DNA of 12,589 bases from assembly GCA_965224245.1 (NCBI GenBank), contig CBDCYW010000002.1:1-12589 (forward strand), written 5' to 3'. The position numbers were made by a program, and so were the translations under genes. Position 1 is the first letter of the stretch; every line of letters starts with the position of its first letter. This DNA is from Candidatus Eiseniibacteriota bacterium. Its GTDB lineage: Bacteria; Eisenbacteria; RBG-16-71-46; CAZAMP01. The notes beneath the pieces were generated by a model, which saw only the letters and a list, made by a program, of their open reading frames with translations, did no database searches and was not told the DNA's origin. Positions 1 to 12,589 of this stretch are shown one piece after another.

Positions 1-334
1 GTCGACCCGCGGGCGTATATCGCGTTGGGGCGCAACGTTCTCCATCGATTTGCAGGCGTCGAATTCTCAGCATTTTCACGCGCCAGGGAGCCCGGCGACG
101 CGGTTCGCAGGGCGTCCGCCGTGGGCGCCAATTCTCAGCATCTGCGAACCGGCAGCCTCCTTGTTTACAGCGCCGCTGTAACCCGTTGGTATGCCTCAGG
201 CCGGACTGCGGCTTTCCACGACTCGCACGCCAACGCGACGACCACCTAAACTCATCACCAGCACAGACCGGACGTTATGGACGGGTCCGCAGACGGAGCC
301 CGATGTCGTCAACTGCGAGCACTGGGAGTACCTT

Positions 335-2515
335 ATGTCAAACCAGCGTTTACGAGAACTACTGTTCGCCGATCTGGCGAACGTGGTTGCCGCCCTAGCC
401 TTGCTCACCGTGCCGTTAGGGACTCCGGCTCAAGCGTCCCAGGACTACGGTGTCGGGGAAGTCATCGTCGAATTCCAGGCCGGACGTATCGAGTTTCCTG
501 ACGGACTTGAACGCTGCGGGTTCGGTGACGTGACGGTGCATGATCCTGTTCTGAGGACACTTCTCAACTCGTGGGGGGTTCGGGCCTTCCAAGTGATCTG
601 CCCGGAATGGCGAGGAATCGACGAATCCGACATGTTCGATATTCAAGGTCGACCAATACTCGAGCCCCTCAAGGACTTCGAGAATGTCTATCTTCTCTAC
701 TTCGACGCTTCTCACACCGTAGACGAGGTAGTCGCCGATCTACGAACCCGGGACGACTATGTGATCTTCGCGCATCCGAACTACCGCGCTCGCGATACTG
801 GGTGCCCGACAATCCCGGTCTCGATTGGGGAAACACTGTACCATCAAACGGCAACACACACTGGATCCTGGGGCATGAGCAACCCAGGCCTGTTCAGCGA
901 GATTGTGGGCGCCGATTCGGTTCAAGCGCTCTTGGACACGGATATCAATCTGCAAGAGGCATGGAGTATCTACAACACAGCCACCAAGAAGGTCGCGGTA
1001 CTGGATCGTGGCATTGACATGTGTCATGAGGACCTTCCTGTGGACGCCGTTCTCTCGAAGTGCTTCAGCGGCAACTCCTGCTCGACCGACGAGACGGACC
1101 CTCAACGAGCCCATGGAACAGCAGTAGCGGGCATCATCGCTGCGATTGCAAACAATGGGGTGGGTGTTGCTGGCGTCCTCGGTCACCCGTCATCAGACGA
1201 TGACCTCATTGTCTCGCTTCAGCTCAGGTCGGCGGACGGTTCAGGACAGACGGCTCATGCGGCAACCGCGATCAGCTACGCTGTTGGCACGGGTGTGATC
1301 CCTGTAACGAACATCAGCATGACTTTCGCCGGGGTCCACGTTGACGCACTCAAGCTAGCAATGAAAAACGCGTTTCTCGCTGGAATGACTTTCGCGGTTT
1401 CCGGGGGGAACAGTTCGAGCGATGTGTCTCCGCAAGAGTGGGGGCGGTTTGGCATCGGAACGACCGGGATCAATATTGATGGGAGTGATCCAGGCTGGCA
1501 CGAGGGGCCCTGGATCGATGTGACTGCTCCGGGGCCCGCGGGAGCACCGTTGGGCGTTCAGCAGGGCGTGTATACCACTGCATGGGTCTCGTTCAACCAA
1601 GACTGCAAGCGCTATGGGTGGTTTCACGCCACCTCGTCCGCAGCTCCACACGTCGCCGGAATGGCGGCGCTCATACTGTCCCACGTTCCGATTGCAACGA
1701 ACGAGGATCTCTTGGAGGTGATTACTCGAACTGCCAGGGACCTCGGGCCAACGGGATATGACGAAACCTGGGGTCACGGCCTAGCTCGACTCGACAACGC
1801 TCTCTGCTTTGTGACGGAGCGAACGCTGGTCCATGGCGACGTGTCTGGGGCATACGACCAGTTGACGTTCGTTGAAGATCGCACCCAAACGTTTCTCAAC
1901 CTGAAGGAGAGTTGGGGGGGAGAAGGCGACTACTGGGTGGATGTGTATAAGGCGACAAAGTCAGTTGGCTTTCCTAGCAACGTTGAGGATTGCCCAATCA
2001 ATACTACCCAGGTTTGGGCGCGAGGTCGTCAATGTTCGGGCTGGCGAAACGAGTCTACGATCGACGTGGCTCTCGACACGACGTGGGGGGGGGTTGTGAA
2101 TGAAACGATCACTCCCTTTGGCTGCGACATTTCGACATACTTCTATGAGGTGTTCGCGGACGAGAACGCATCCAGTTCCCTGGGGTGGTTCCCCTACGAT
2201 CCCGATGATGCGTCGTCTCCTCCCCTGAGTTGGGGCTACACGTACCTCGTGCTGCCTTCCTGTCCGCAACGGATCGGAGGGAACGCGATCGAGAACCTTC
2301 AGGCTCCCACTGTCACAACGACCGTGCAAGTCTATGACGTAGCTGGCCGCCGAGTCCGCGAGTGGGACATGGAGGGCCCAACGTCCGCAAGTTCCATCGA
2401 GTGGGATGGGCGGCTAGACTCCGGTCGCCTGGCACCGACTGGTGTATACTTCGTGCGAGCGCGGAACGCCGTAGGTGCAGCAGCAATGAGTCAGCGCGTG
2501 CTCGTGGTTCGATGA
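335..2515 (+). CDS. Secreted S8 (subtilisin-like) serine peptidase with C-terminal FlgD-Ig-like domain
   Basis: Triad motifs VAVLDRGID (Asp), HGTAVAGIIAA (His) and ATSSAAPHVAG (Ser), with oxyanion Asn in VSGGNS. C-terminus VQVYDVAGRRVR...WDGRLDSGRLAPTGVYFVR is FlgD-Ig-like. ATG 335 follows GGGAG (324-328) and gives a signal peptide (...ALALLTVPLGTPAQA); the ORF extends up to 191. Confidence 0.9.
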   Translation: MSNQRLRELLFADLANVVAALALLTVPLGTPAQASQDYGVGEVIVEFQAGRIEFPDGLERCGFGDVTVHDPVLRTLLNSWGVRAFQVICPEWRGIDESDMFDIQGRPILEPLKDFENVYLLYFDASHTVDEVVADLRTRDDYVIFAHPNYRARDTGCPTIPVSIGETLYHQTATHTGSWGMSNPGLFSEIVGADSVQALLDTDINLQEAWSIYNTATKKVAVLDRGIDMCHEDLPVDAVLSKCFSGNSCSTDETDPQRAHGTAVAGIIAAIANNGVGVAGVLGHPSSDDDLIVSLQLRSADGSGQTAHAATAISYAVGTGVIPVTNISMTFAGVHVDALKLAMKNAFLAGMTFAVSGGNSSSDVSPQEWGRFGIGTTGINIDGSDPGWHEGPWIDVTAPGPAGAPLGVQQGVYTTAWVSFNQDCKRYGWFHATSSAAPHVAGMAALILSHVPIATNEDLLEVITRTARDLGPTGYDETWGHGLARLDNALCFVTERTLVHGDVSGAYDQLTFVEDRTQTFLNLKESWGGEGDYWVDVYKATKSVGFPSNVEDCPINTTQVWARGRQCSGWRNESTIDVALDTTWGGVVNETITPFGCDISTYFYEVFADENASSSLGWFPYDPDDASSPPLSWGYTYLVLPSCPQRIGGNAIENLQAPTVTTTVQVYDVAGRRVREWDMEGPTSASSIEWDGRLDSGRLAPTGVYFVRARNAVGAAAMSQRVLVVR

Positions 2516-4209
2516 TCCAGGACTTCACGAGGCCGTCGGGGATGCTAAGGATGTGTCAACTGAGACGTATGGTCTTCTGCTTGGGCTGCCTCTGTCCTGT
2601 CTCGACTGGGATCGCAGGTGTGTCGGACACCACGTGGTTTGGTGGATCGGATCCCAACACGGGCATTGCCGTACAAGGTGGCATCTGGGACTTCGAGGAC
2701 TGCACGACACAGGGCTGGTCCAGCGTCGATCGAAGCGACGAGGGGCTCTTCGTGACGCACGTCACACCCGACTCGAACGCCGTGCATGGAGATGGTGACG
2801 TGACCGCCATCAATTCCTCTGGATCAATCTGGTTCGGTGCCCACGCGGACCGCGCAGAGGAAGAGTGTTGGCCAGGCGGTCAGGGCTACGACAACGCCTG
2901 GGTACAGGTCGCGCGCAAGACGTTCTCATACGGCGGCAGCGGCGACGTCACGATCGAGTTCGACTACTTCGCCGACAGCTCGGCGGGGTTTGACTTCACG
3001 TACGTCTACATCGCGACTGACGACGTAACCATCGGCCCACTCAACCCGGGGGCGTGGGGCCCGGGGTATTCAGGTTCGGTTGGGTCGCCGCAGAGCCCAG
3101 CGCACGCTGTACTGGTGGCAAGCGAAGTTGACCTGGCGACAGTCGTGGACTCGTTCGACGTCGTGTTTCAGTTCGAGGCAAACGAGTCTGAGTCGGATGG
3201 CTGGGACGCGCTTGGGACCACGATAGACACGATTGGCGGGTTCGGTCTCGACAACGTAGGGGTCGTCGGCAACGCGCTGGACGACTTCAGCGACTTCGAA
3301 CCCGGCGCGATTGGAGGCGCTGAGCGCGATGGCTGGCGCCTCTATGAGGCACCCCCCATTGGCAGTTTCGGAGACGTCGCTCCGCTGGAGGACGTCGACA
3401 CGAACCAGGAGGTGCCGGAGAGCTGCCCGGTCGTGGGCTGCGTGCTCCTCGCTTCGGATGCGCTCGGGGGTGGGGACCCCCATCCGTACTTGCAGCACGA
3501 GACTCTTCGGTCGAATGCCGTCCCTGCTGTGGAGATGATGGTCGACGCGGTCGTGCTCCAGTTCGATGCGTGGCTGAACTGGCCCGACGGGATGGGTATC
3601 TTCTTCTATCTCGGCGTCGAGTACTACCCGTGGACTTGCCCGGAGAGCGGCGTCGTTGGCTGGTCCCCGATACCGACTCTGAGTGTCTCAGGCGTGGCTG
3701 CGCCGGCGATCTGCGCCAGCGATGCAGTCGTGGATGTGACCGGAGACCTGCCGCCGATTGCGCTCGTGGACTCGCTCCGGATCGGGATCATCATGCAGAG
3801 GTCGTGTGATCCGTTTTCGCCAAGTTGTGCTCGGGACGCATTCAGTAACGCCCCGTCGCCATTCTTCGACAATCTTCGCGTTGGGTTCGTCCGATCGAGC
3901 GTTGGCGTTGTGGACCATTCATGGCCAGGGCCGCGTCCATACGAAGTAGTCCCGTCGCACAATCCGATCAATACCGGGGTACTGTGCACGTTCTTCCTGC
4001 CGAACGCTGAGTCGGTGCAATTGTCAGTGTATGATGTCTCGGGAAGACTGGTGCGCCTCTTGCGCGACGAGGATCTTCCGAGGGGTGAACACTCCACTGG
4101 CTGGAACGCAACCGATAGCGCGGAACGCCGGGTGGCTCCGGGAATGTACTTCCTTCGTCTGAAGACGCCCCACGCGTCGCACACTTCGCGCGTGATTGTG
4201 GCCCGTTGA
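2512..4209 (+). CDS. Secreted acidic, Cys-containing protein with C-terminal FlgD-Ig-like domain
   Basis: Long ORF. ATG 2512 overlaps the upstream stop (ATGA); alternative ATGs at 2542 and 2551. Hydrophobic N-terminus. C-terminus HNPIN...VQLSVYDVSGRLVRLL...WNATDSAERRVAPGMYFLRL. Confidence 0.8.
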   Translation: MIQDFTRPSGMLRMCQLRRMVFCLGCLCPVSTGIAGVSDTTWFGGSDPNTGIAVQGGIWDFEDCTTQGWSSVDRSDEGLFVTHVTPDSNAVHGDGDVTAINSSGSIWFGAHADRAEEECWPGGQGYDNAWVQVARKTFSYGGSGDVTIEFDYFADSSAGFDFTYVYIATDDVTIGPLNPGAWGPGYSGSVGSPQSPAHAVLVASEVDLATVVDSFDVVFQFEANESESDGWDALGTTIDTIGGFGLDNVGVVGNALDDFSDFEPGAIGGAERDGWRLYEAPPIGSFGDVAPLEDVDTNQEVPESCPVVGCVLLASDALGGGDPHPYLQHETLRSNAVPAVEMMVDAVVLQFDAWLNWPDGMGIFFYLGVEYYPWTCPESGVVGWSPIPTLSVSGVAAPAICASDAVVDVTGDLPPIALVDSLRIGIIMQRSCDPFSPSCARDAFSNAPSPFFDNLRVGFVRSSVGVVDHSWPGPRPYEVVPSHNPINTGVLCTFFLPNAESVQLSVYDVSGRLVRLLRDEDLPRGEHSTGWNATDSAERRVAPGMYFLRLKTPHASHTSRVIVAR

Positions 4210-4222
4210 TTCTGATCGAACG

Positions 4223-4248
4223 ACAAAACCCGGCGCAACCGCACCGGG
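4223..4248 (-). terminator. Intrinsic terminator-like hairpin downstream of the distal gene X remnant
   Basis: Minus strand CCCGGTGC-GGTT-GCGCCGGG followed by TTTTGT. The 22-mer at 4227-4248 is identical to 6937-6958 downstream of intact gene X. Confidence 0.65.
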
Positions 4249-4274
4249 CAAGCAGAACCGTCTGGGGCTGACGG

Positions 4275-4413
4275 CTAGCTCTTGAGCACCGCCCTCAACC
4301 GGTTCTGCAACGACCCCTGCTTGTTCCCGACCACGTCCCTCGGCCCGATGTGCTTCTCGCAGTACTGCTCGGCCGACTTCCCGATCGAGACCTTCAGCTT
4401 CTCCGTGGGGATC
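4275..4413 (-). pseudogene. Distal 3'-end remnant of gene X (last 45 codons)
   Basis: Translates IPTEKLKVSIGKSAEQYCEKHIGPRDVVGNKQGSLQNRLRAVLKS*, homologous to the gene X C-terminus. About 121/139 nt identical to 5411-5549, with 58 bp perfect at 4331-4388. No homologous 5' part. Confidence 0.85.
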
Positions 4414-4465
4414 GTGCGACTGCAGCAGAGCGTATCCGCGGAGTACTTGAGACGCTCCGGCTGCA

Positions 4466-5302
4466 CTACGTCAACGCCCCGAACGCGTTGGGCCAGGTGC
4501 TTCGTACGAACGCCAGTCCGAGCTTGGTGGCGTGAAGGCCGTGCCAATCCGGGTTCGTGCCGTCGTCAGCGACGCGATAGTCAAGTTCGAGCAGACCACG
4601 AGTCAGCAGCTCACGGACGGCGCCGTCAAAGACCAGCGGCCTCGTGTCTGCGTTCTTACCTAGGTTCTCGTCGTGAGCGATCAGGCCCTCATGGAGTGAG
4701 AACTTCGGATTGCTCATCCTCAAACGGCCATACAGGTTCATGAGGTAGACGGCCCTAGAACTTAGAGAACGCCGGATATTCGCCAGCCGCTCACCGATCG
4801 CTCCTTCGAACTTTGTGGCACCCTCAAGCAGCGCTTGGGAAACGCGCTTGATCGGATCACCCTGATCGTAGGCGACGACTCGGTTGTCTTTGATGTCAAA
4901 GTGCAAGTCACGCAGGTCACCTTGCGCGATGAGGATGATCTGGCTGAGAGGCTTGAGGGACAGGGCAACACCGGTCTCTACCAGTACTCCATGATTGGCC
5001 ATTGTGAGGTCTGCGACGAAAAAGTGGTCGGCGAGTATGTGCTCTACGATCTCCTCGGTGATTTCGGAGGCGTTCGGCGCCAAGCGATCGGCTCGAACTG
5101 GTGGGCATGCGAACGGGCGAGCCGGCCCCTGCTCGTTGGCGCGCTTCACCGCCTCACAGATGATTGTGTCGAACACATCGGTTGCTCGATAGCTGAACTG
5201 ATCCCGAAATGGCATCGCTACGAACGTGGTGTAGCGATCGGCAACAATCTGGCCGGCCAAGGCGTCTTGCCCTGTTTCTCGCCAAATGCGATCCGCGTTC
5301 AT
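4466..5302 (-). CDS. Nucleoside 2-deoxyribosyltransferase-like (NDT/TIR-like fold) protein with probable C-terminal winged helix
   Basis: Motifs FVAMPF, VRADR, EIVEHI..DHFFVADLTMANHGVLVETGVALSLKP and LHFDI..NRVVAY. C-terminus VRELLTRGLLEL...LHATKLGLAFV is wHTH-like. ATG 5302 has GGGAG upstream; alternative starts at 5335 and 5344. Confidence 0.75.
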   Translation of the reverse strand: MNADRIWRETGQDALAGQIVADRYTTFVAMPFRDQFSYRATDVFDTIICEAVKRANEQGPARPFACPPVRADRLAPNASEITEEIVEHILADHFFVADLTMANHGVLVETGVALSLKPLSQIILIAQGDLRDLHFDIKDNRVVAYDQGDPIKRVSQALLEGATKFEGAIGERLANIRRSLSSRAVYLMNLYGRLRMSNPKFSLHEGLIAHDENLGKNADTRPLVFDGAVRELLTRGLLELDYRVADDGTNPDWHGLHATKLGLAFVRSTWPNAFGALT

Positions 5303-5563
5303 TCTGATGCTCCCGGGTTCTGATCGCGTGATCATAGCCAGCATCGAGCGAGATGCTACAAATAAGCGCGGAGCTTCGGACCAGGGCAGGAGGGAACCTG
5401 GGCAGGGCTGCTAGCTCTTCAGCGCCGCCCGCAGCCGATTCGAGAGGCTGCCCTGCTTGTTCCCGGCCACGTCCCTCGGCCCGATGTGCTTCTCGCAGTA
5501 CTGCTCGGCCGACTTCCCGATCGACACCTTGAGCTTCTCCATCGGGATCACCTCCTCGGTTTC

Positions 5564-5595
5564 CGGCCGTTATGCCGAGCTCGGCATAACGGCCG
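5564..5595. repeat. 32-bp perfect palindrome CGGCCG-TTATGCCGAG-CTCGGCATAA-CGGCCG
   Basis: Read directly. Built from two copies of the adjacent element's terminal decamer between CGGCCG hexamers. Confidence 0.95.
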
Positions 5596-5878
5596 TTATG
5601 CCGAGTGCCGGATTATGCCGAGCCGGCGCCAAGAGCCTGCGGTCACTGTGGCCTGGAGTCGATCCTACTCGGCATAATCGGAGGCACTTCAGTGCTCCAA
5701 AGCGCGGGATAGCCGCAATGAAGCCCAACCTGGCGCACCGTCCTCGTCGTCCGGCTCTGATCCGGGTCGAGGAAGAGGTCCGTTTTATGCCGAGCGTCAA
5801 GCGTTCTGAACGCGTGCAAGTCTGTGCTGCGTCTCACGGCCTGCTATGTGGCTCGGCATAATCCGGCACTCGGCATAA
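5596..5878. mobile_element. 283-bp non-autonomous miniature element with RIT-like terminal inverted repeats
   Basis: Perfect 29-bp inverted repeats TTATGCCGAGTGCCGGATTATGCCGAGCC (5596-5624 and 5850-5878). Inner inverted cores at 5668-5677 and 5785-5794. Flanked by CGGCCG (5590-5595, 5879-5884). It splits a gene X remnant and encodes no recombinase. Confidence 0.8.
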
Positions 5879-6205
5879 CGGCCGGCCCTTGACGGTGACC
5901 CTGAGCCCCTTGGCGACCTTGACGACGTCGAAGCTGACGCGCTCGGAGACGTTGGTGGCGCGGCCGCCAGTGAATTCGCGACCGCGTTGCCAGATAGTAG
6001 CTTTCGAGGCCCGTGCTAGACTCATCGAATGTGCGAAGTCGTCCATCTCCAGCTCTTGCTGGCGACGCTCTCGGCGTGGATCGGACGTTGTCGGGCGGGC
6101 GGTCATCGCCCCCGATCGCATTCCTGCTGAGCCCTACGTCGTCAGTGCCGCTGACGGTTGCCTGTCGCGAGGGACGCCGTGGACTCCTGAGGTACGGGGA
6201 GCGTG

Positions 6206-6829
6206 ATGCGTACAACGATGCTGCTGGTGCTCTCCTGTGCCGCCGTCGTCACGTCGGGCCGTGCCGATGGACCGCCACAGATGATCGCGGCTGCGGACCT
6301 CGGTTTCTGCCAGTCGCCGCCGCACGAGGACCGGGACTGCGATGACATACTCTCAGAACTCAGTGAGTTCGGCGGTCTCATCGACGTCCTCGTGCAAGGT
6401 CTTCCGAGGATCAAAGAAGCGCGGTTCGGCGTGTTCATCGACGGTGACGACACGGAGTTCGGCTGGACCCAGTACGGCGGGTTCACCGTCTCCGTGGTGG
6501 ACACACTCCCGAGCGTCCAGTACGCGATCATTGCAACAGCCATCGACGGCTGCCACAAACTCAGCGATGGGATGCACCATCTGCTGTGCTTCTCGAACGC
6601 CTTTGTTCGCGAGGAAACGACGTTCGCGGTCGTTCCCGACCCCAGGATTGGCCGCGCACAAGTGACCACCTGCGACGACATTGTGATCACGATCCCGGAG
6701 GAGTACCTCGGCATCGTCGGGATCGGTGGCCCACCAGGCTACAACCCCTGCGAAGAGGGCACGGTGGACGTGCCAGATACCCCCCTCCAACGATCATCGT
6801 GGACGACGGTCAAGTCCCTTTACCGGTAG
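6206..6829 (+). CDS. Secreted hypothetical protein with C-terminal SWxxVKSLYR motif
   Basis: GGGGAG RBS precedes GTG 6203/ATG 6206. Signal-peptide-like MRTTMLLVLSCAAVVTSGRA. Ends TPLQRSSWTTVKSLYR. Confidence 0.8.
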   Translation: MRTTMLLVLSCAAVVTSGRADGPPQMIAAADLGFCQSPPHEDRDCDDILSELSEFGGLIDVLVQGLPRIKEARFGVFIDGDDTEFGWTQYGGFTVSVVDTLPSVQYAIIATAIDGCHKLSDGMHHLLCFSNAFVREETTFAVVPDPRIGRAQVTTCDDIVITIPEEYLGIVGIGGPPGYNPCEEGTVDVPDTPLQRSSWTTVKSLYR

Positions 6830-6932
6830 CCGTGTTGAACAACAGCGGGGCCGCACGTGGTGTAGGCTGTCCATGCCGAACACCGACTGCGCGCGCGGAC
6901 GCGGCCTGGATGGTTGGCGACACGGGACAAGG

Positions 6933-6959
6933 AGAGAACCCGGCGCAACCGCACCGGGT
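6933..6959 (-). terminator. Terminator-like hairpin downstream of gene X
   Basis: Same hairpin as 4229-4248, followed on the minus strand by TTCTCT; about 30 bp after the gene X stop. Confidence 0.55.
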
Positions 6960-6987: not shown

Positions 6988-7594
6988 CTAGCCTCTCAGC
7001 ACCGCCCGCAACCGGTTCGCCAACGACCCTGACTTGTTCCCGACGACCTCACGCGGCCCCAGGTGCCGATCGGTGTAGTCCAGCGCCGCCTTGTTGATCG
7101 AGACCTTGATGAGCTCGGGGTTCAGCACCTCCTCGGTGTCGGGGCGTCCCTTGATCGCGACCTTCACGCTCTTGCCGCTCTTCTCGACGAGGAACGTCAC
7201 GCGCTCGGCGACGTTGGTGGCGCGGCCGCCGGTGAACTCGCAGGGGACGCCGGCCTTCTTGCAGGCGTCGCGGTAGGGGCCGAGGACGTCGCGGAACTGG
7301 GCCTTGGCGTCGGCGATGAGGGTGTTGGCCTCGCCGCGGAGCGTGGCGGCCTCGGCCTGCATCTCCCGGACGTTCCGTTCGGCGTCGACGACGGCGGTGC
7401 GGAGCGCGTCGAGGTTGGGGGCGGCCGTGTCGCCCGTCGTCGGGGGCGGTGTCGGCGTTTCGGCGGCCGGGGCGGCCGTCGGGGGCCTTCGTCGGCCGAG
7501 CCTTTGCGGTGCGGCCCGATTTGGCGCCGGTGCCGCCCTTGGTCGCCTTCGCCGCCGTCGCCTTCCTCGGAGCCTTCTTCTTCGTCGTCGCCAT
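6988..7594 (-). CDS. 'Gene X': uncharacterised ~201-aa protein (Lys/Ala-rich N-tail, Pro/Ala/Thr linker, coiled coil, conserved C-terminal domain); apparent frameshift near 7481-7485
   Basis: Strong AGGAGG RBS (7600-7605) before ATG 7594, giving MATTKKKAPRKATAAKATK. Removing one base from the G5 run joins this to PTAAPAAETPTPPP...NLDALRTAVVDAERNVREMQAEAATL... and ORF 6988..7362. Very high GC3; two paralogous remnants conserve the protein sequence. Confidence 0.8.
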
Positions 7595-7647
7595 GTCGTC
7601 CTCCTGGGCCGATGTCGCAGGCGCGCCCGATTGCGCGCCAGTGCGAC

Positions 7648-7678
7648 ACACGACCGCTCTGGCCTCTGGTTAAGTCAA
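7648..7678 (-). promoter_or_regulatory. Promoter-like motif TTGACT-N13-GAGCGGTCGTGT facing gene X
   Basis: -35-like TTGACT at 7678-7673; mirrored by the same motif on the + strand at 7713-7743. Confidence 0.55.
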
Positions 7679-7712
7679 GCAATGGCAACGGGTTAATTCG
7701 TGGCTTTCTCGG

Positions 7713-7743
7713 TTGACTGGAGCGTCGCGGCGAGCGGTGATGT
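7713..7743 (+). promoter_or_regulatory. Promoter-like motif TTGACT-N13-GAGCGGTGATGT facing the recombinase
   Basis: Same hexamer, same 13-nt spacing and 10/12 identical second box as the minus-strand motif. Confidence 0.55.
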
Positions 7744-7921
7744 AGCGGAAAACAGAACGCCCCCGGGCGCGGCCGCGTGAGCTGCACCGGGACGGAGTTG
7801 CTCCCCGAAAGACGGAGGTGGGAGCGGCGGTAACAAGGATGAGCGCGCCGGCTCCCCGGGAACGAAGGACACAATTATCCGAAGCGAGTCCGTTAGGCTC
7901 GACGCAAGAGGGAGGTGAGGA

Positions 7922-8512
7922 TTGCCGTACCGCGCCCCCGAGACCATGACCACCGCCGAGCAGCGACGCCTCCTCGACGTCAGCGCCGAGAGCCCGAGGC
8001 CGCGCGATCACGTGATGATCTCGCTCGCGCTCGGCACCGGGCTTCGACTCGGTGAGCTGCTCGCGCTCGACGTCGGTGACGTGAGCCCCGATGGCGTCCA
8101 CGTGCGCACGCGCGTGAAGCTGCGCGTGGAGACGACCAAGGGCGCGCGCAAGGGCGAGGTGTTTCTGCCGGATCGGGTCGTCGAGAAGCTGACGCGGTTC
8201 CTGGCGTGGAAGCGCATGATGGGGGAGTCGCTCGATGGCGACGCGCCGTTGTTTGTGTCGTCATGGGGGCGGCGGTTGTCGCCGAGGCGGACGCAGATGA
8301 TGTTTCAAACGTGGCAGCGGAGAGCAGGCTTCGATCGACTGTACAACTGGCACTGCACCAGGCACTCGGCCATTTCCAACGTCTACCGAGCGTCTCGGGA
8401 CCTCTTTCTCGCCCAGAGGTTCGCTCGCCACGCGTCACCCCTCACCACCATCATCTACACCCATGTATCAGATGAGGAGATGGCGGAGAGGGTACGAGCG
8501 TTACCGTGCTAG
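7922..8512 (+). CDS. Short tyrosine recombinase/integrase (catalytic domain only, 196 aa)
   Basis: RDHVMISLALGTGLRLGEL (Arg), TKG (Lys), HCTRH (HxxR), FARHASPLTTIIYTH (His, Tyr). GGAGGTGA RBS before TTG 7922. Confidence 0.93.
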   Translation: MPYRAPETMTTAEQRRLLDVSAESPRPRDHVMISLALGTGLRLGELLALDVGDVSPDGVHVRTRVKLRVETTKGARKGEVFLPDRVVEKLTRFLAWKRMMGESLDGDAPLFVSSWGRRLSPRRTQMMFQTWQRRAGFDRLYNWHCTRHSAISNVYRASRDLFLAQRFARHASPLTTIIYTHVSDEEMAERVRALPC

Positions 8513-8620
8513 TCTTGTTCGGTCCTTTACGCAAGGGCGGTCGGACACGCACGTGAGCCGGCCCCCACGAAGGTGGGGAGAGAGGCTAACGGGTACCCCT
8601 CTTTCGTGTCTGGTGATGAA

Positions 8621-9792
8621 ATGGCAAACAGCGTGACGGTGGCGAGCCGCGTTGGTCTTCTGGTCGCACTGGCGGCGATCGGCATCGGGTGTGCTTCGAC
8701 CGCGCACGTTCGAGCCCGATCAGGCATGGTAGCGATCTGCGACCCAGTTGTCGCGATCCACCCAGACTCGACGATCGGACGGTGGCGAGATGGCCCATTT
8801 GAGGATTGGAAGAAGATCGGTCCGCGGGGTCTCGCCATGGACGTCGTGGGGGTGGATGAGGTTCTTGCGGATGAACTGCGATCACTCGGATCGCAGGCGA
8901 TCGAGCTGGGAAGGACTGCGGCTGAGACGCAGTGCGACTTCATTGTGGTGCCCGCGATCGTGGCTGCGAAGCTCCGAAACGTGGGTACGGACTACCTTCG
9001 TCGTGCGTCAGTCACGGCGACAGTTCGGTGGATCGGCATCGAGAACCCCTCAGGTCGAGGTCGCTTTGAGATCGAGAACGTCTGCGCGGCGGAGGGTGGG
9101 TCCGCCCGGAAGGCATGGATGGAAGCACTCCGCGTCGGTCTACGATCTATGCTCGCGGATGGGAGGATCGGCGAGCACTGGTTGTCCACCGCGCCGACCG
9201 CGCAGGATGAGGCGGCGATCGAGGCGGCGGATCAACCGGCGGGGGATTGGCTGCTGGAAGCCCGGAGGTCCGTGTTCACGCTCCTCAACTACCGCGACCA
9301 TGGCCACGGAAGTGGCTTTGCGTTTGCCAACGGCGGCTGGGGGTTCAGCAACGTACACGTCTTCGGCAGGTCGTCCGCCCTGTTTGCTACGGTAGATGGA
9401 ACCGATCAACGCGCCGCGCTCGCGTGGCGCCGAAACCGCGAACGGGATGTCGTTCTTTTCAGGTTCTCAGGCGACCCGGTCGCGAGCTTGCCGGTAGCGA
9501 GCACTCCGCCTGAGATCGGCGCCGATGTGTTTGTAATCGGCAGTCCGCTGGAGTGGAACGCGGCCGGTAGTGTCGCGAAGGGCGTCGTCAGCAACCGTGC
9601 GATGCGCGAGGGGCAAGAGTTCATGCAAACGGACGCGCCAGTCAATCCGGAAACAGCGGGGGCCCCGTCCTCAACGAACATGGATCGGTTGTGGGCGTCA
9701 TCGTGGAAAAAGTCGTTGGGCTTGCCGTCGAAGGAATTGGTTACGCAATCCCGATTGAGAACGCGATGGAGTCAGTGGACTGGCCTAACTGA
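8621..9792 (+). CDS. Lipoprotein with C-terminal trypsin-like (S1C/HtrA-type) protease domain; frameshifted at ~9647-9650
   Basis: Signal plus lipobox-like VGLLVALAAIGIGC. Motifs GSGFAF, SNVHV (His) and RDVVLF (Asp). One added base restores [45 protein letters not shown]...WPN* (stop 9790-9792). Confidence 0.85.
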
Positions 9793-9830
9793 CTCACTCT
9801 GTTGAGGCTGCGAGTCCGGAAGAAACGCCG

Positions 9831-10984
9831 TCAGCGCTCACCCCTGATCCGATAGTTCGCCTCCAGCCCATCCCAGAGCCGCTTGAACGCCATTCCGAAC
9901 GCCCGCTTATCCTCCCAGCCCCGGAAATCGACGATGTTGTACGTCCGCTTCATGTGTGCGAGATCGGCTTTGCCGATGCCGAGCCTCGACGGCGGGTTCT
10001 CCCACGTGTTGTCGATGCTAATGGGGCAGAGGACCGGCCTGCCGAGTTCACGCTCCTTCTTCTCCGCGGCCTCGACCTCCAAGCCCACCCACTTCGACTC
10101 CAGGGACTCTCTCGACAGGACGAGGATGGTCACGTCGTTCAGACGGATCGCGCGAGTGAGTGAGGCTCGATCTCCCCGGCGTCCATGTCCTTGATGTCGC
10201 GCCAGTGGCGGAAGCCCTTCGAGTCGAACTCGGTCGAGAGACGGTCAACGAAGCGGGTGTTGGCGTCGCAACGGGCGTAAGAGATGAAGGCGCCGCCGAT
10301 CAGGAGCGGGCCGGCGGAGACGAGCTCGTCGATCTTGTAGATGATGCGATGGATGGCGTCTTCGTTGCCGACGTTCTCGGGGCGTCGGAGGTCATACGTG
10401 AGGATGGCGAGGTCGGAGAGGCCGCAGGTTCGCAGAAACTCCATCGGCAGCGACGGATTGATCTCCAGTGTGCCGACATCAATCGCGCATGGGCCGGAGT
10501 TGACAATACGATCCAGACCGGTTGCTCCTGTCAGGCTGGTTCGGAAGAATCCAGCACCTTGGAGCATGGCGCGGTCGGCAGCCGCCCGGTCTAGTACCGC
10601 GAGTCGGAGGTCACAGAACTCGGCGCGTGCGCCGTTGAGCTGGGCAGCGGTTAGGTTCGCCTGACTGAGATCAGTTCCACGCAGCCTGCTGGTCCGGGTG
10701 CGTGGAGTGGCGAGTCTTCGCGGTGATGAGGGACTGAAAGGTCCCAAATCGACTCCTTGCAGGTTCGCAGCACGGAGGTCGATGAAGCTCAGGTTCGCGC
10801 CACGCAGATCCGCACCACCCAGGTCCGCGCCACGTAGGTCAATCGGGATTCGCCATCGCATGTTCGTGTGGGCAGCCGGAACAACACCCTGGCTCTGTTG
10901 GGAATCGTGCCACTCATTCCACTCCTCCACCCGTTCCGCCTTCAGCGTCTCAATCGCCCACTCCCGCGACCCGATCTCTGCCAT
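9831..10984 (-). CDS. Pentapeptide-repeat + TIR (TIR_2-like) domain protein; frameshifted at ~10160
   Basis: Repeats DLRGADLGGADLRGANLSFIDLRAANLQGVDL. TIR start AFISYAR...FVDRL...GFRHWRDIKDMDAG. One added base gives EIEPxLTRAIRLNDVTILVLSRESLESKWVGLEVEAAEKKE...VLCPISID, about 384 aa in total. Confidence 0.85.
10943..10984 (-). repeat. Copy A of a 42-bp direct repeat (start of the pentapeptide-TIR gene)
   Basis: 38/42 identical to 12005-12046, with 27 bp perfect; encodes MAEIGSREWAIETL. Confidence 0.9.
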
Positions 10985-11922
10985 CACTCGTCCTCGCCCG
11001 GCACGATGAGCCGATTGTTCCTAATGTACAGCTTACCGTTGGGGTTGGGCTGGTACTCGTTGATCCACTCGAGGATGGCCTCGTAGTCCTTGAGTTCGAA
11101 GTCGTAGCGGGATGCCTTGAAGTCCTTGACGCCCTTCGTGAAATGCGACGTTGTCGCGAGCATGGCATTCGCCGCCCGTACTTCACCCTTTACCGCGTAC
11201 AGCGACCGCGCGATGTCGATGCCGACTTTGCGGTCGAGCCGGTACTTTTTGCACTCGATGATCCACGAGGTACGCACGCCAGCCCCGTCCTTTGAGATCG
11301 CGAGGATATCGTACCCGCCGTCTCGGGTTGGCGGCGTGAGCTGCACGGACCAGCCGTAGCCTGCGAGGATCTCAGCGATCAACTCCTCAAACTGGTGGGG
11401 TCGTATCACGTCAAGCTTGTGCGGGTGTTGCTGGAGGTGGGCAATGAGTCGCGCAGCAACCAGGTCGACGACTTCCACCAGTTCACCGGGGGGATCGGCG
11501 GGGCCGAACAGTCGGTGAGGCGGTGCAACGGAGTCTTGAGCCTCCAGAATGCCACCATAGACGTTGTCGTATTCGTCGCTCGCATACCGAGGCAGTGCCG
11601 TCGCTGTCGAGAGTTCGGGCAGGCGCAACGGAGGATCGTAGGTTTCCTTACACGCGACCCGCATGCGAACCCAGTAGTATGTGTTGTATGGTGGAGTCTG
11701 CGCTTCTTCGTCGTCGCCGATCACGATGCGCTCATCCTGCGTCACGGCAGAAACTAGGCCCCACCCAGCCAGAAGAGTGGGATCTGAGGAATCGACAACA
11801 AGCAGCGAGTCACCCGGCGAGATTTGGAGCGGAGCCCAAACCGAGTAGCTAAGCTGGAGCTCTCCTTCGACCTTCCCGTTGGACGTGTCTCGAAGTGCGA
11901 TCCAGCTAGACATGTTGTTCAT
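10984..11922 (-). CDS. Mrr-family (PD-(D/E)xK) restriction endonuclease with N-terminal EVE/PUA-like domain
   Basis: FEELIAEILAGYGWSVQLTPPTRDGGYDILA...IIECKKY...VG....RSLY...AMLATTSHFT is Mrr_cat-like. N-terminus ISPGDSLLVV...LAGWGLVS...YWVRMRV...DPPLRLPEL resembles EVE. Start 11922 or 11913; stop overlaps the TIR ATG (TGATG). Confidence 0.82.
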   Translation of the reverse strand: MNNMSSWIALRDTSNGKVEGELQLSYSVWAPLQISPGDSLLVVDSSDPTLLAGWGLVSAVTQDERIVIGDDEEAQTPPYNTYYWVRMRVACKETYDPPLRLPELSTATALPRYASDEYDNVYGGILEAQDSVAPPHRLFGPADPPGELVEVVDLVAARLIAHLQQHPHKLDVIRPHQFEELIAEILAGYGWSVQLTPPTRDGGYDILAISKDGAGVRTSWIIECKKYRLDRKVGIDIARSLYAVKGEVRAANAMLATTSHFTKGVKDFKASRYDFELKDYEAILEWINEYQPNPNGKLYIRNNRLIVPGEDE

Positions 11923-12004
11923 CCCCGTTTCCAATCGCGACCATTGGGATGTGCCAACAAGTGACGTGTGATCGAAGGAAGCCCAGTGGCACCTGATGAG
12001 TTGC

Positions 12005-12046
12005 CAGCATCTCAATCGCCCACTCCCGCGACCCGACTTCCGCCAT
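12005..12046 (-). repeat. Copy B: orphan 5' start of the pentapeptide-TIR gene
   Basis: MAEVGSREWAIEML with a GAGAGG RBS upstream; runs into unrelated sequence and stops at 11906 (46 aa). Confidence 0.85.
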
Positions 12047-12165
12047 GGCGCCCTCTCATAGAGTTGGTGAATGGCGGGAGTATAGACAGGAGAGTCAGTC
12101 CGGCGAAATCTCAATGCGGCAGTCGTTCGCGGACAAGTGGCCGATGGCAGGGGAGGTAGGGCTCC

Positions 12166-12471: not shown

Positions 12472-12588
12472 CTACGAGGGCAGCACGCGCCGTTGATCGC
12501 TCCACCTGGCGGTCCGCAACGCCTCCCTCAACCGCCGCTCCCCAACCACGATCGTCCCATCGAGCAGCCTCACCTGGATATCCGGTGC
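12472..12588 (-). CDS. Possible 3' end of a gene entering from beyond the window
   Basis: Open frame APDIQVRLLDGTIVVGERRLREALRTARWSDQRRVLPS* with high GC3. Confidence 0.4.
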   Translation of the reverse strand, partial: APDIQVRLLDGTIVVGERRLREALRTARWSDQRRVLPS

Positions 12589-12589
12589 C

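Follow-up and report, generated by a model that had tools for sequence, protein, structure and literature searches.

The window analysed here is a 12,589-nucleotide stretch of DNA from a Candidatus Eiseniibacteriota bacterium, and corresponds to the entire 12.6-kb contig (C3) of a 6.94-Mb assembly. At its centre two genes diverge: one, here called Rec, encodes a tyrosine recombinase that consists of the catalytic domain alone, and the other, here called X, encodes a basic coiled-coil protein. What is new is this uncharacterised catalytic-only recombinase family beside an uncharacterised basic protein family. In our judgement there is about an even chance that Rec and X, as mobile-element genes, are independent of each other and have become fixed next to one another in one phage-like element family, and that they do not form an obligate two-component system; the pair looks like neighbours in a cargo-swapping hotspot, not like a two-part machine.

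Rec (7922..8512, stop included, plus strand) is a 196-aa open reading frame (ORF) with a TTG start, 6 nt ahead of which stands GGGAGG; a TGA at 7916-7918 shuts the frame just 5' of the TTG. Pfam PF00589 covers residues 8-185 with 80.2 bits (cut-off 27.1) and the active site is complete (R42, K73, H144, R147, H170 and Y179), so Rec is a member of the tyrosine recombinase superfamily. Its alignment to XerA (5hxy, 317 aa; E 6e-14) is confined to residues 133-308, and that to XerD (1a0p, 290 aa) to residues 103-286; because only the catalytic halves of the two proteins are aligned, Rec lacks the core-binding domain. No SAM-like Pfam domain was found in Rec, and its RD motif (R28-D29) is preceded by 27 residues. 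An earlier sequence-only reading of this DNA had listed the full R-K-HxxR-H-Y set, a start about 27 residues before the RD box with no core-binding domain, and a size like that of FimB/FimE; each of these observations was borne out.

The relatives of Rec share this build. A search of 5.8 billion proteins, restricted to lengths of 107-343 aa, yielded 2390 matches at E ≤ 1e-5, and among the 120 relatives listed (identity 59-90%) 114 measured 186-205 aa. We scanned five of the six listed relatives that fall outside this range, together with one 205-aa member; all six carried PF00589 alone, with no N-terminal domain, SAM-like included. The six catalytic residues were invariant in 30/30 aligned members, as were an N-terminal P-x-T-x-T..EQ motif and a final Cys. 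Given the narrow length distribution and the PF00589-only longer members, the short form is the norm of the family and not a truncation. The Rec family is therefore large and strongly conserved, with members of ~196 aa that comprise the catalytic domain alone with a full active site.

The best sequence matches of Rec are found among the Xer proteins (XerA, XerC/D) and the "simple" recombinases, namely the XerA match given above and the NCBIfam model NF040815 (88 bits). Nevertheless, Rec scores far under the Xer equivalog cut-offs of 220-335 bits (88.1 vs 220 for NF040815, 83.8 vs 335 for TIGR02224, 67.6 vs 330 for TIGR02225), has no core-binding domain, and occurs in eight copies on mobile DNA, whereas Xer is one chromosomal gene. 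It is also far below the cut-offs for integron integrases (TIGR02249, 48.8 vs 265 bits; NF011946, 23.8 vs 435 bits).

To our knowledge, the FimB/FimE invertases are the main known case of tyrosine recombinases without a core-binding domain. The proteins of Escherichia coli resemble Rec in their length of ~200 aa, in being essentially a catalytic domain alone, and in the R-K-H-R-H-Y active site; they differ in that Rec is placed outside their family by NCBIfam (21 bits vs a cut-off of 222 for the FimB/FimE-type invertase model NF007371), is multi-copy, sits in phage-like elements and has no invertible segment that we could find. A literature search turned up no catalytic-only recombinase family of Rec's kind. 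According to Smyshlyaev et al. 2021 (PMC8138268), "simple" tyrosine recombinases usually consist of a core-binding and a catalytic domain, and by that standard the build of Rec is unusual.

X is read on the minus strand from an ATG at 7597, which GGAGGA precedes. The 5' part of the gene (7479..7597), comprising the start codon and a Lys/Ala/Thr-rich tail, matches the N-termini of seven intact paralogues (193-207 aa) from the same genome, while the 3' part (6988..7477), which encodes a long helix and a conserved C-terminal domain and ends with a stop at 6988-6990, lies in another frame; its ORF spans 6988-7362, with the frame still open further upstream. The two parts are separated by an approximately placed one-base insertion at 7478, an extra G on the plus strand that is missing from 7/7 intact paralogues, in agreement with the frameshift suspected in the sequence-only reading. 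The window copy of X thus appears to be out of frame. Public contigs from four runs of one sample, possibly the window's own source sample, were placed on the window, several parts of which they leave uncovered; one paralogue contig shows a like 1-nt difference at 7478, which is covered by no difference-free contig, and an assembly error and a real mutation both fit the extra G.

The properties of the X protein were taken from an intact paralogue (P0001) that is 95% identical to the window X. Its tail (residues 1-55) has a pI of 11.5 and is predicted to be disordered, residues 60-113 form a long helix in the predicted structure (pLDDT 84-93), and residues 114-199 have a pI of 9.7, for a pI of 10.0 over the whole protein. 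After the helix, the model contains three strands and two to three helices; the last 99 residues, modelled alone, reached a pLDDT of 82 and a pTM of 0.64. The model and the paralogues agree with the Lys/Ala tail, coiled coil and conserved basic C-terminal domain first described from the window alone. X is a real conserved protein, and its modelled build is nucleoid-like in general terms: a basic disordered tail, a helix of the oligomerising kind and a basic globular domain.

We retrieved 34 relatives of X in a word-indexed search, and 172 representative clusters with the C-terminal domain at E ≤ 1e-3 among 1.84 billion proteins; their record titles name metagenome-assembled genomes of Planctomycetota, Acidobacteria, Desulfomonile, Verrucomicrobiae, Gemmatimonadales and Nitrospinae. 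Over the last 65 codons of X in 29 sequences, the residues are conserved and the synonymous sites are free, to the point that one invariant Arg is written in six codons, indicating selection on the protein and not on a DNA site. A conserved DNA site at the 3' end of X, which we had considered, was rejected on the same grounds.

The absence of a known family for X is claimed for four libraries, Pfam (where the window's 124-aa X ORF, the intact C1 copy and a G011 copy were all without a family; G011 is a relative of the same class), NCBIfam, PHROGs and PADLOC, none of whose models matches it. The best PDB profile match was to a coiled coil (E 0.054). Foldseek against the PDB gave no match at E ≤ 0.001 with the intact-paralogue model, either whole or as the C-terminal domain. 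With VIA-align, the whole protein retrieved coiled coils only (best Z 6.0), and the best match of the C-terminal domain was a WNK CCT-like domain with a Z of 6.3 (rmsd 2.6, 63 residues), which the tool itself assigns to its chance range. A search of the Protein Atlas yielded nothing usable. X therefore stands as a small family of basic coiled-coil proteins with a C-terminal domain of no known family.

X is similar to H-NS, Lsr2 and MvaT in being small and basic, in combining an oligomerising helix with a separate basic domain, and in its link to horizontally acquired genes; it differs from them in showing no sequence family match and in its extra histone-H1-like N-terminal tail. No H-NS, Lsr2 or MvaT chain was found among the best 50 fold matches of whole X or of its C-terminal domain. 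The suggestion of an H-NS/Lsr2-like silencer agrees with the general nucleoid-type build and the place at the head of the cargo, and receives no support from a family or fold match.

Outside this genome, X adjoins phage genes (portal, head completion, baseplate J, primase), and in other phyla large helicase, methylase, DruA or DUF499 genes are found directly downstream of it. GenBank phages contained no match to X; IMG/VR contained two contigs. Twenty longer proteins with the C-terminal domain were inspected as possible domain fusions and rejected, since they showed AAA_25, glycosyltransferase and CHAP-type matches only and look like gene calls running into X remnants. A separate 325-aa protein, P0035, carries HSDR_N nuclease-type domains (PF04313, PF13588) with the X C-terminal domain at its end, and is a possible true nuclease fusion.

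The assembly is composed of one 6.45-Mb contig (69% G+C) and 26 small contigs (57-66% G+C). It holds eight intact X/Rec pairs, all divergent, on C3 (the window), C1, C10, C11, C18, C22 and C23 (two), as well as one decayed pair (C1:892582-894274). The copies are 70-92% identical in DNA. Relative to the window, the C18 copy has 96% identity in Rec and 60% in X, and the C10 copy 85% in both; within the genome, the two genes have thus not diverged in parallel.

In six of the eight pairs, a large serine recombinase gene (Resolvase, Recombinase, Zn_ribbon_recom) lies 1.2-5.0 kb beyond Rec and converges on it; in the eighth, a second pair comes next. The last nucleotides of the window (12477..12589) are the first 113 nt of a conserved ~2.4-kb block, cut off by the contig end, which in other copies carries the large serine recombinase gene. 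Beyond this gene come RepO and DnaB, or AAA_24, DUF669, Prim-Pol, D5_N, D12 methylase, ParB_N and a terminase gpA ATPase, followed by host-type genes. The X/Rec pairs belong to small phage-like integrative elements of ~14 kb. These have a variable cargo region between host genes and the serine recombinase at the element edge, and its conserved core is formed by the divergent pair.

The cargo regions carry nuclease, TIR, protease and secreted-protein genes. Such variable, defence-type cargo at a fixed place in an integrative phage-like family is comparable to the hotspots of defence genes in P2-like phages and P4-like satellites (PMC9122126); the elements studied here differ in their serine-recombinase integration, their conserved recombinase/X pair and their gene remnants.

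Outside this genome, each of Rec and X is found without the other. The X loci from other genomes numbered 22 (20 from species-representative genomes and two viral contigs), at least 4.6 kb on both sides of X being available in 12; no match at E ≤ 1e-3 to Rec, to the G011 recombinase or to the serine recombinase was detected in any of them (0/22). When five X genomes were searched whole, a PF00589 gene was present within 10 kb of 2/8 X copies, and both such genes encode ordinary long integrases (ORFs of 459 and 522 aa, 27-29% identical to Rec). In the reverse direction, none of the 26 metagenome loci that carry a Rec relative matched any of seven X queries.

Among 40 relatives of the same class, a Rec-like match (E ≤ 1e-20) occurred in 11 and X in one, G011. 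The product of the Rec-like gene of G011 has 286 aa, including an N-terminal domain, and shares 36% identity with Rec. The neighbours of Rec elsewhere are varied and include FlgD_ig/Por_Secre_tail secreted proteins, HSDR_N/RAMA, DUF4145 and peptidoglycan-binding genes. The size of the ~196-aa family, its PF00589-only members and their invariant catalytic residues indicate that Rec can probably stand alone.

If the two genes are independent, the large serine recombinase would integrate the element and Rec, to judge from its context, would be an autonomous site-specific recombinase with a second job. The most likely such jobs would be the resolution of multimers of the element's circular form, or the rearrangement or exchange of adjacent cargo; the latter would fit the presence of 5'-truncated Rec and X remnants on the flanks of the cargo. 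X, from its surroundings, most likely would bind nucleic acid via its basic tail and C-terminal domain, oligomerise via its long helix and regulate the cargo genes that typically follow it.

Some observations weigh against the independence of the two genes. The divergent arrangement is the same in all eight copies, despite differences of 8-30% in DNA; the two genes have thus stayed together as the element family spread, which could mean a shared function. A basic protein such as X might help a recombinase without a core-binding domain to hold DNA. Two X loci of G011 have a full-length tyrosine recombinase, with 36% identity to Rec, 5.9-6.6 kb upstream of the X gene, and the flanks examined around X in other genomes reach ~6 kb. 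Moreover, of the 26 metagenome Rec loci, only five combine a close full-length relative with upstream sequence of 1.4 kb or more. Finally, no recombination site, excised circle or inversion was seen, and consequently the roles of Rec and X are drawn from context.

A different account of the locus starts from the gene remnants. Downstream of X, on its strand, the window contains 5'-truncated copies of X with cargo between them, and a like arrangement is present on C11 and C23. The first remnant, X', is made of an upstream piece (5880..5984, minus strand; approximately residues 66-101 of X, with 93-95% identity to X on C18 and C23) and a downstream piece (5398..5549, minus strand; approximately residues 102-149, the stop and 13 nt, with no hairpin). 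These are split by a 315-bp insert (5565..5879) resembling a miniature inverted-repeat transposable element, whose terminal inverted repeats are perfect over 35 nt (5590-5624 and 5850-5884) and which has an inner palindrome of 16 nt (5564-5595); contigs joining 5564 to 5880 exist and may be paralogues. The second remnant, X'' (4262..4413, minus strand; approximately residues 104-149 and the stop), is a sequence repeat, and a 292-aa cargo ORF (4466..5344, minus strand) with no Pfam match lies between X' and X''. A repeat of ~110 nt (5979-6088) abuts the 5' break of X'; it has at least nine copies, 77-86% identical, in C1:6.14-6.35 Mb and at C1:4109243.

The copies of X share one 3' boundary, composed of the stop codon, ~35 nt, a hairpin and a T-run, that ends at 6929 and at 4219 in the window. 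The G+C-rich hairpin after X and its T-run occupy 6929..6958 (minus strand), which is where the similarity of all X copies and remnants ends in 14 aligned X 3' ends; a second copy (4219..4248, minus strand) is separated by 10 nt from the stop codon of the FlgD_ig gene on the flank. At their 5' ends, on the other hand, the remnants differ (residues 62, 66, 75, 104 and ~150 in this genome, 96-136 in G011).

A like arrangement was seen in the 2.6-Mb genome of G011, where one 361-nt junction unit is matched 28 times, including 11 times in a stretch of 13 kb (C12:25456-38712). Each unit comprises 0-55 X codons, a hairpin and a near-consensus TTGACA-17-TATGCT promoter, and is followed by one or two same-strand cargo ORFs (DUF4062, STAND/TPR, Abi_C and methylase-nuclease among them); a 50-nt leader is common to three units. 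One border of the array consists of Prim-Pol/D5 and ParB-methylase genes together with a full-length tyrosine recombinase; at the opposite border stands a large serine recombinase.

Remnants of Rec also occur. Downstream of Rec, 5'-truncated copies are present at C22:2960-3085 and in four loci of relatives, with a similarity that stops exactly at the stop codon. In locus L082, 2315-2425 and 3188-3346 are Rec remnants 3' of intact Rec genes, and one Rec remnant is interrupted by a stop codon; three relatives (G034, G012 and G021) have clusters of Rec copies at distances of 3-35 kb. The truncated X and Rec copies on the flanks of cargo point to cargo turnover.

The window and C11 are two haplotypes of such a locus. 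Their left flanks (532-4413 of the window) are 98.6% identical and their cargo is different; the window differs from C11 by exactly one 1136-bp unit gained (or lost in C11), consisting of the 292-aa ORF, missing from C11, and a 152-nt X repeat. One of the placed contigs joins 4413 to 5879 with 14 other letters between.

These features could be explained by an integron-like capture, in which Rec, or another recombinase supplied in trans, would insert cassettes of cargo plus an X 3' repeat downstream of X, with promoters within the repeats driving their expression. The remnants with same-strand cargo between them at two loci here and in G011, the single 3' boundary of all copies, the G011 units with their hairpin, promoter, same-strand cargo and, in three cases, the same leader, and the two haplotypes that differ by one cargo unit bounded by 152-nt repeats are all in its favour. 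We nonetheless consider it unlikely. The remnants have no fixed 5' end, a Rec-clade gene is missing from the G011 arrays, and the free synonymous sites at the 3' end of X across genomes imply that there is no family-wide DNA site. Furthermore, the Rec remnants are likewise 5'-truncated with nothing common after the stop codon, as simple decay would leave, and homologous recombination between repeats could equally lose a cargo unit.

The arrays resemble integrons (IntI, attI, attC) in being cargo arrays on one strand, with repeated hairpin-bearing junctions, downstream of a fixed head gene; they differ from them in that each junction consists of a gene 3' end that has a terminator and a promoter and begins at a variable 5' end, and in that the G011 arrays lack a Rec-clade gene. 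Quite unlikely, in our estimation, is the wider proposition that X marks an undescribed gene-capture array, in which cargo cassettes gather 3' of X, each delimited by a junction that derives from the end of X and has its own terminator hairpin and promoter, and a recombinase (Rec here, another enzyme in G011) brings them in and takes them out. The remnants fit three readings: capture at a site, build-up of tandem elements followed by decay, and homologous exchange between related elements.

We also looked for a site on which Rec might act. The divergent intergenic region is 324 bp long (7598..7921), and in an alignment of eight modules its X-proximal ~100 nt are conserved and the rest is variable. 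The X leader contains, directly ahead of the ribosome-binding site, a 34-nt imperfect palindrome (7614..7647) whose two ~13-nt arms enclose 6 nt; it can be made out by eye in 7/8 aligned modules. The strict full-site pattern was found at two places in the genome, both in modules, and the half-sites at 283 places that include seven modules and, outside them, scattered singles. As RNA, the palindrome folds with -40.3 kcal/mol (z -1.8). No like palindrome was detected upstream of Rec in 12 other loci (relatives and metagenomes) or upstream of X in 16 other loci. Candidate functions of the palindrome are those of an operator, an mRNA element (an RNA hairpin) and a Rec site.

In Cre/loxP of phage P1 and in TnpS/TnpT of Tn4651-type transposons, a tyrosine recombinase of a mobile element acts on one site beside its own gene, and in the TnpS/TnpT case the recombinase and an accessory protein are divergently transcribed with the site between them. 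Rec is much shorter than these enzymes, and the palindrome is only a candidate site. By analogy with Cre/loxP or Xer/dif, Rec might act on the palindrome to keep a circular replicating element monomeric: the palindrome occurs once per module in seven of eight and was found at no other place in the genome, replication and ParB-like genes are part of the elements, a serine recombinase for integration is already present in them, and the comparable G011 element has both a tyrosine and a serine recombinase. Multimer resolution of this kind seems rather unlikely to us, however, as the palindrome has no counterpart upstream of Rec in those 12 loci, its position before the ribosome-binding site and its fold as an RNA hairpin mean that it may be an operator or an mRNA element, and a circular or plasmid stage is only presumed.

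One suggestion of the sequence-only reading was that X may be a DNA-binding or bridging partner that gives Rec its target recognition, the divergent pair then being a two-protein recombination system. Eight intact divergent pairs in this genome, the missing core-binding domain of Rec, the basic character of X (pI 10.0) with a long helix that could bridge DNA, and a palindrome between the genes in 7/8 modules speak for such a cofactor. What undermines the proposal, by a test that the sequence-only reading itself had put forward, is that the two genes do not travel together: co-occurrence outside the genome is nil in the X loci and in the metagenome Rec loci (0/22 and 0/26), and among the relatives X is found in 1/40 as compared with 11/40 for Rec-like genes. 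In addition, the ~196-aa form of Rec is kept in hundreds of metagenome contigs with varied neighbours, never X, and the two genes diverge out of step within this genome. We therefore hold a cofactor role for X to be distinctly unlikely. A complex prediction for Rec with X residues 55-199 gave a score of 0.00 and a mark of 0.32, and was counted neither way.

A phase switch in which Rec inverts a promoter-bearing segment between the genes, as FimB/FimE invert a promoter element (PMC6083910), is very improbable: the size and catalytic-only build of Rec and the divergent genes with their 324-bp intergenic region would suit it, but that region has no flanking inverted repeats, the segment is inverted in none of the eight paralogues or placed contigs (repeats of 9 nt and rare forms could escape this search), and the score of Rec against NF007371 is far too low. 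No inversion or circle junction was found in the public contigs placed on the window. A 15-nt inverted match (7534-7548 and 8130-8144) was dismissed as chance, both arms coding for Thr-Lys-Gly, and the contig joints 5564/5880 and 8490/12538 were explained by paralogues.

The remaining cargo of the window surrounds the pair on both sides. Convergent with X is a 208-aa ORF (6203..6829, plus strand) with a signal-peptide-like start and no family match. Beyond Rec come a trypsin-like peptidase (8573..9805, plus strand; PF13365, 54.7 bits, with a weak PADLOC RT-Protease match), a pentapeptide-repeat/TIR gene (9831..10987, minus strand) and an Mrr-type nuclease (10984..12114, minus strand; PF04471, 68 bits, with PADLOC matches to PDC-S02 and mREase_IV). 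The pentapeptide/TIR gene is broken by a frame change into two ORFs (10139-10987 and 9831-10133), between which the TIR_2 profile is divided. These three cargo genes lie between Rec and the serine recombinase; on C11 a beta-propeller protein is encoded in their place.

In the public contigs, the depth was 11 for the C11 form and 2-3 for the window-specific pieces; at this variable locus, the window thus represents a minor haplotype. Three of its genes are broken within 12.6 kb (X, pentapeptide/TIR and Mrr), and these breaks may be real or assembly errors, both of which fit a low-depth haplotype. The pentapeptide/TIR and Mrr-type genes open with the same 42 nt (10943-10984 and 12005-12046, 90% identical, ~14 residues; also at C23:16272-16341). 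The shared start at 12046 is out of frame with the long Mrr ORF, suggesting a common N-terminal module and another frame break.

To the left of the cargo, 191-4209 encodes an S8 peptidase and a 615-aa protein, both secreted, with FlgD_ig/type IX secretion-like tails, 98.6% identical to the C11 copy. The left end of the contig (1-285) is repeated at C23:5072-5319, C11:27308-27580 and four places in C1:6.096-6.194 Mb (82-87%). Both contig ends are repeats, and this accounts for the break in the assembly. The last ~350 kb of the large contig (G000 C1:6.09-6.45 Mb) and the 26 small contigs share repeats, FlgD_ig/Por_Secre_tail secreted-protein genes, IS3, IS66 and defence-type genes; this zone contains ~10 serine-recombinase element copies and looks large and hypervariable.

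Our results leave the attractive idea of Rec and X as one machine unsupported. Each of the two families has a significance of its own. Rec represents a separate, large and tightly conserved catalytic-only family, carried on mobile DNA by soil bacteria that have been little studied. The conserved protein X, encoded by mobile elements and bearing a histone-like tail, stands at the head of defence-type cargo in several phyla. The X array, if the capture proposition were true, would be a promoter-bearing integron analogue inside the phage-like elements of Eisenbacteria-type genomes. The promoter-bearing gene-end junctions may show how the cargo of a hotspot is stacked and kept expressed.

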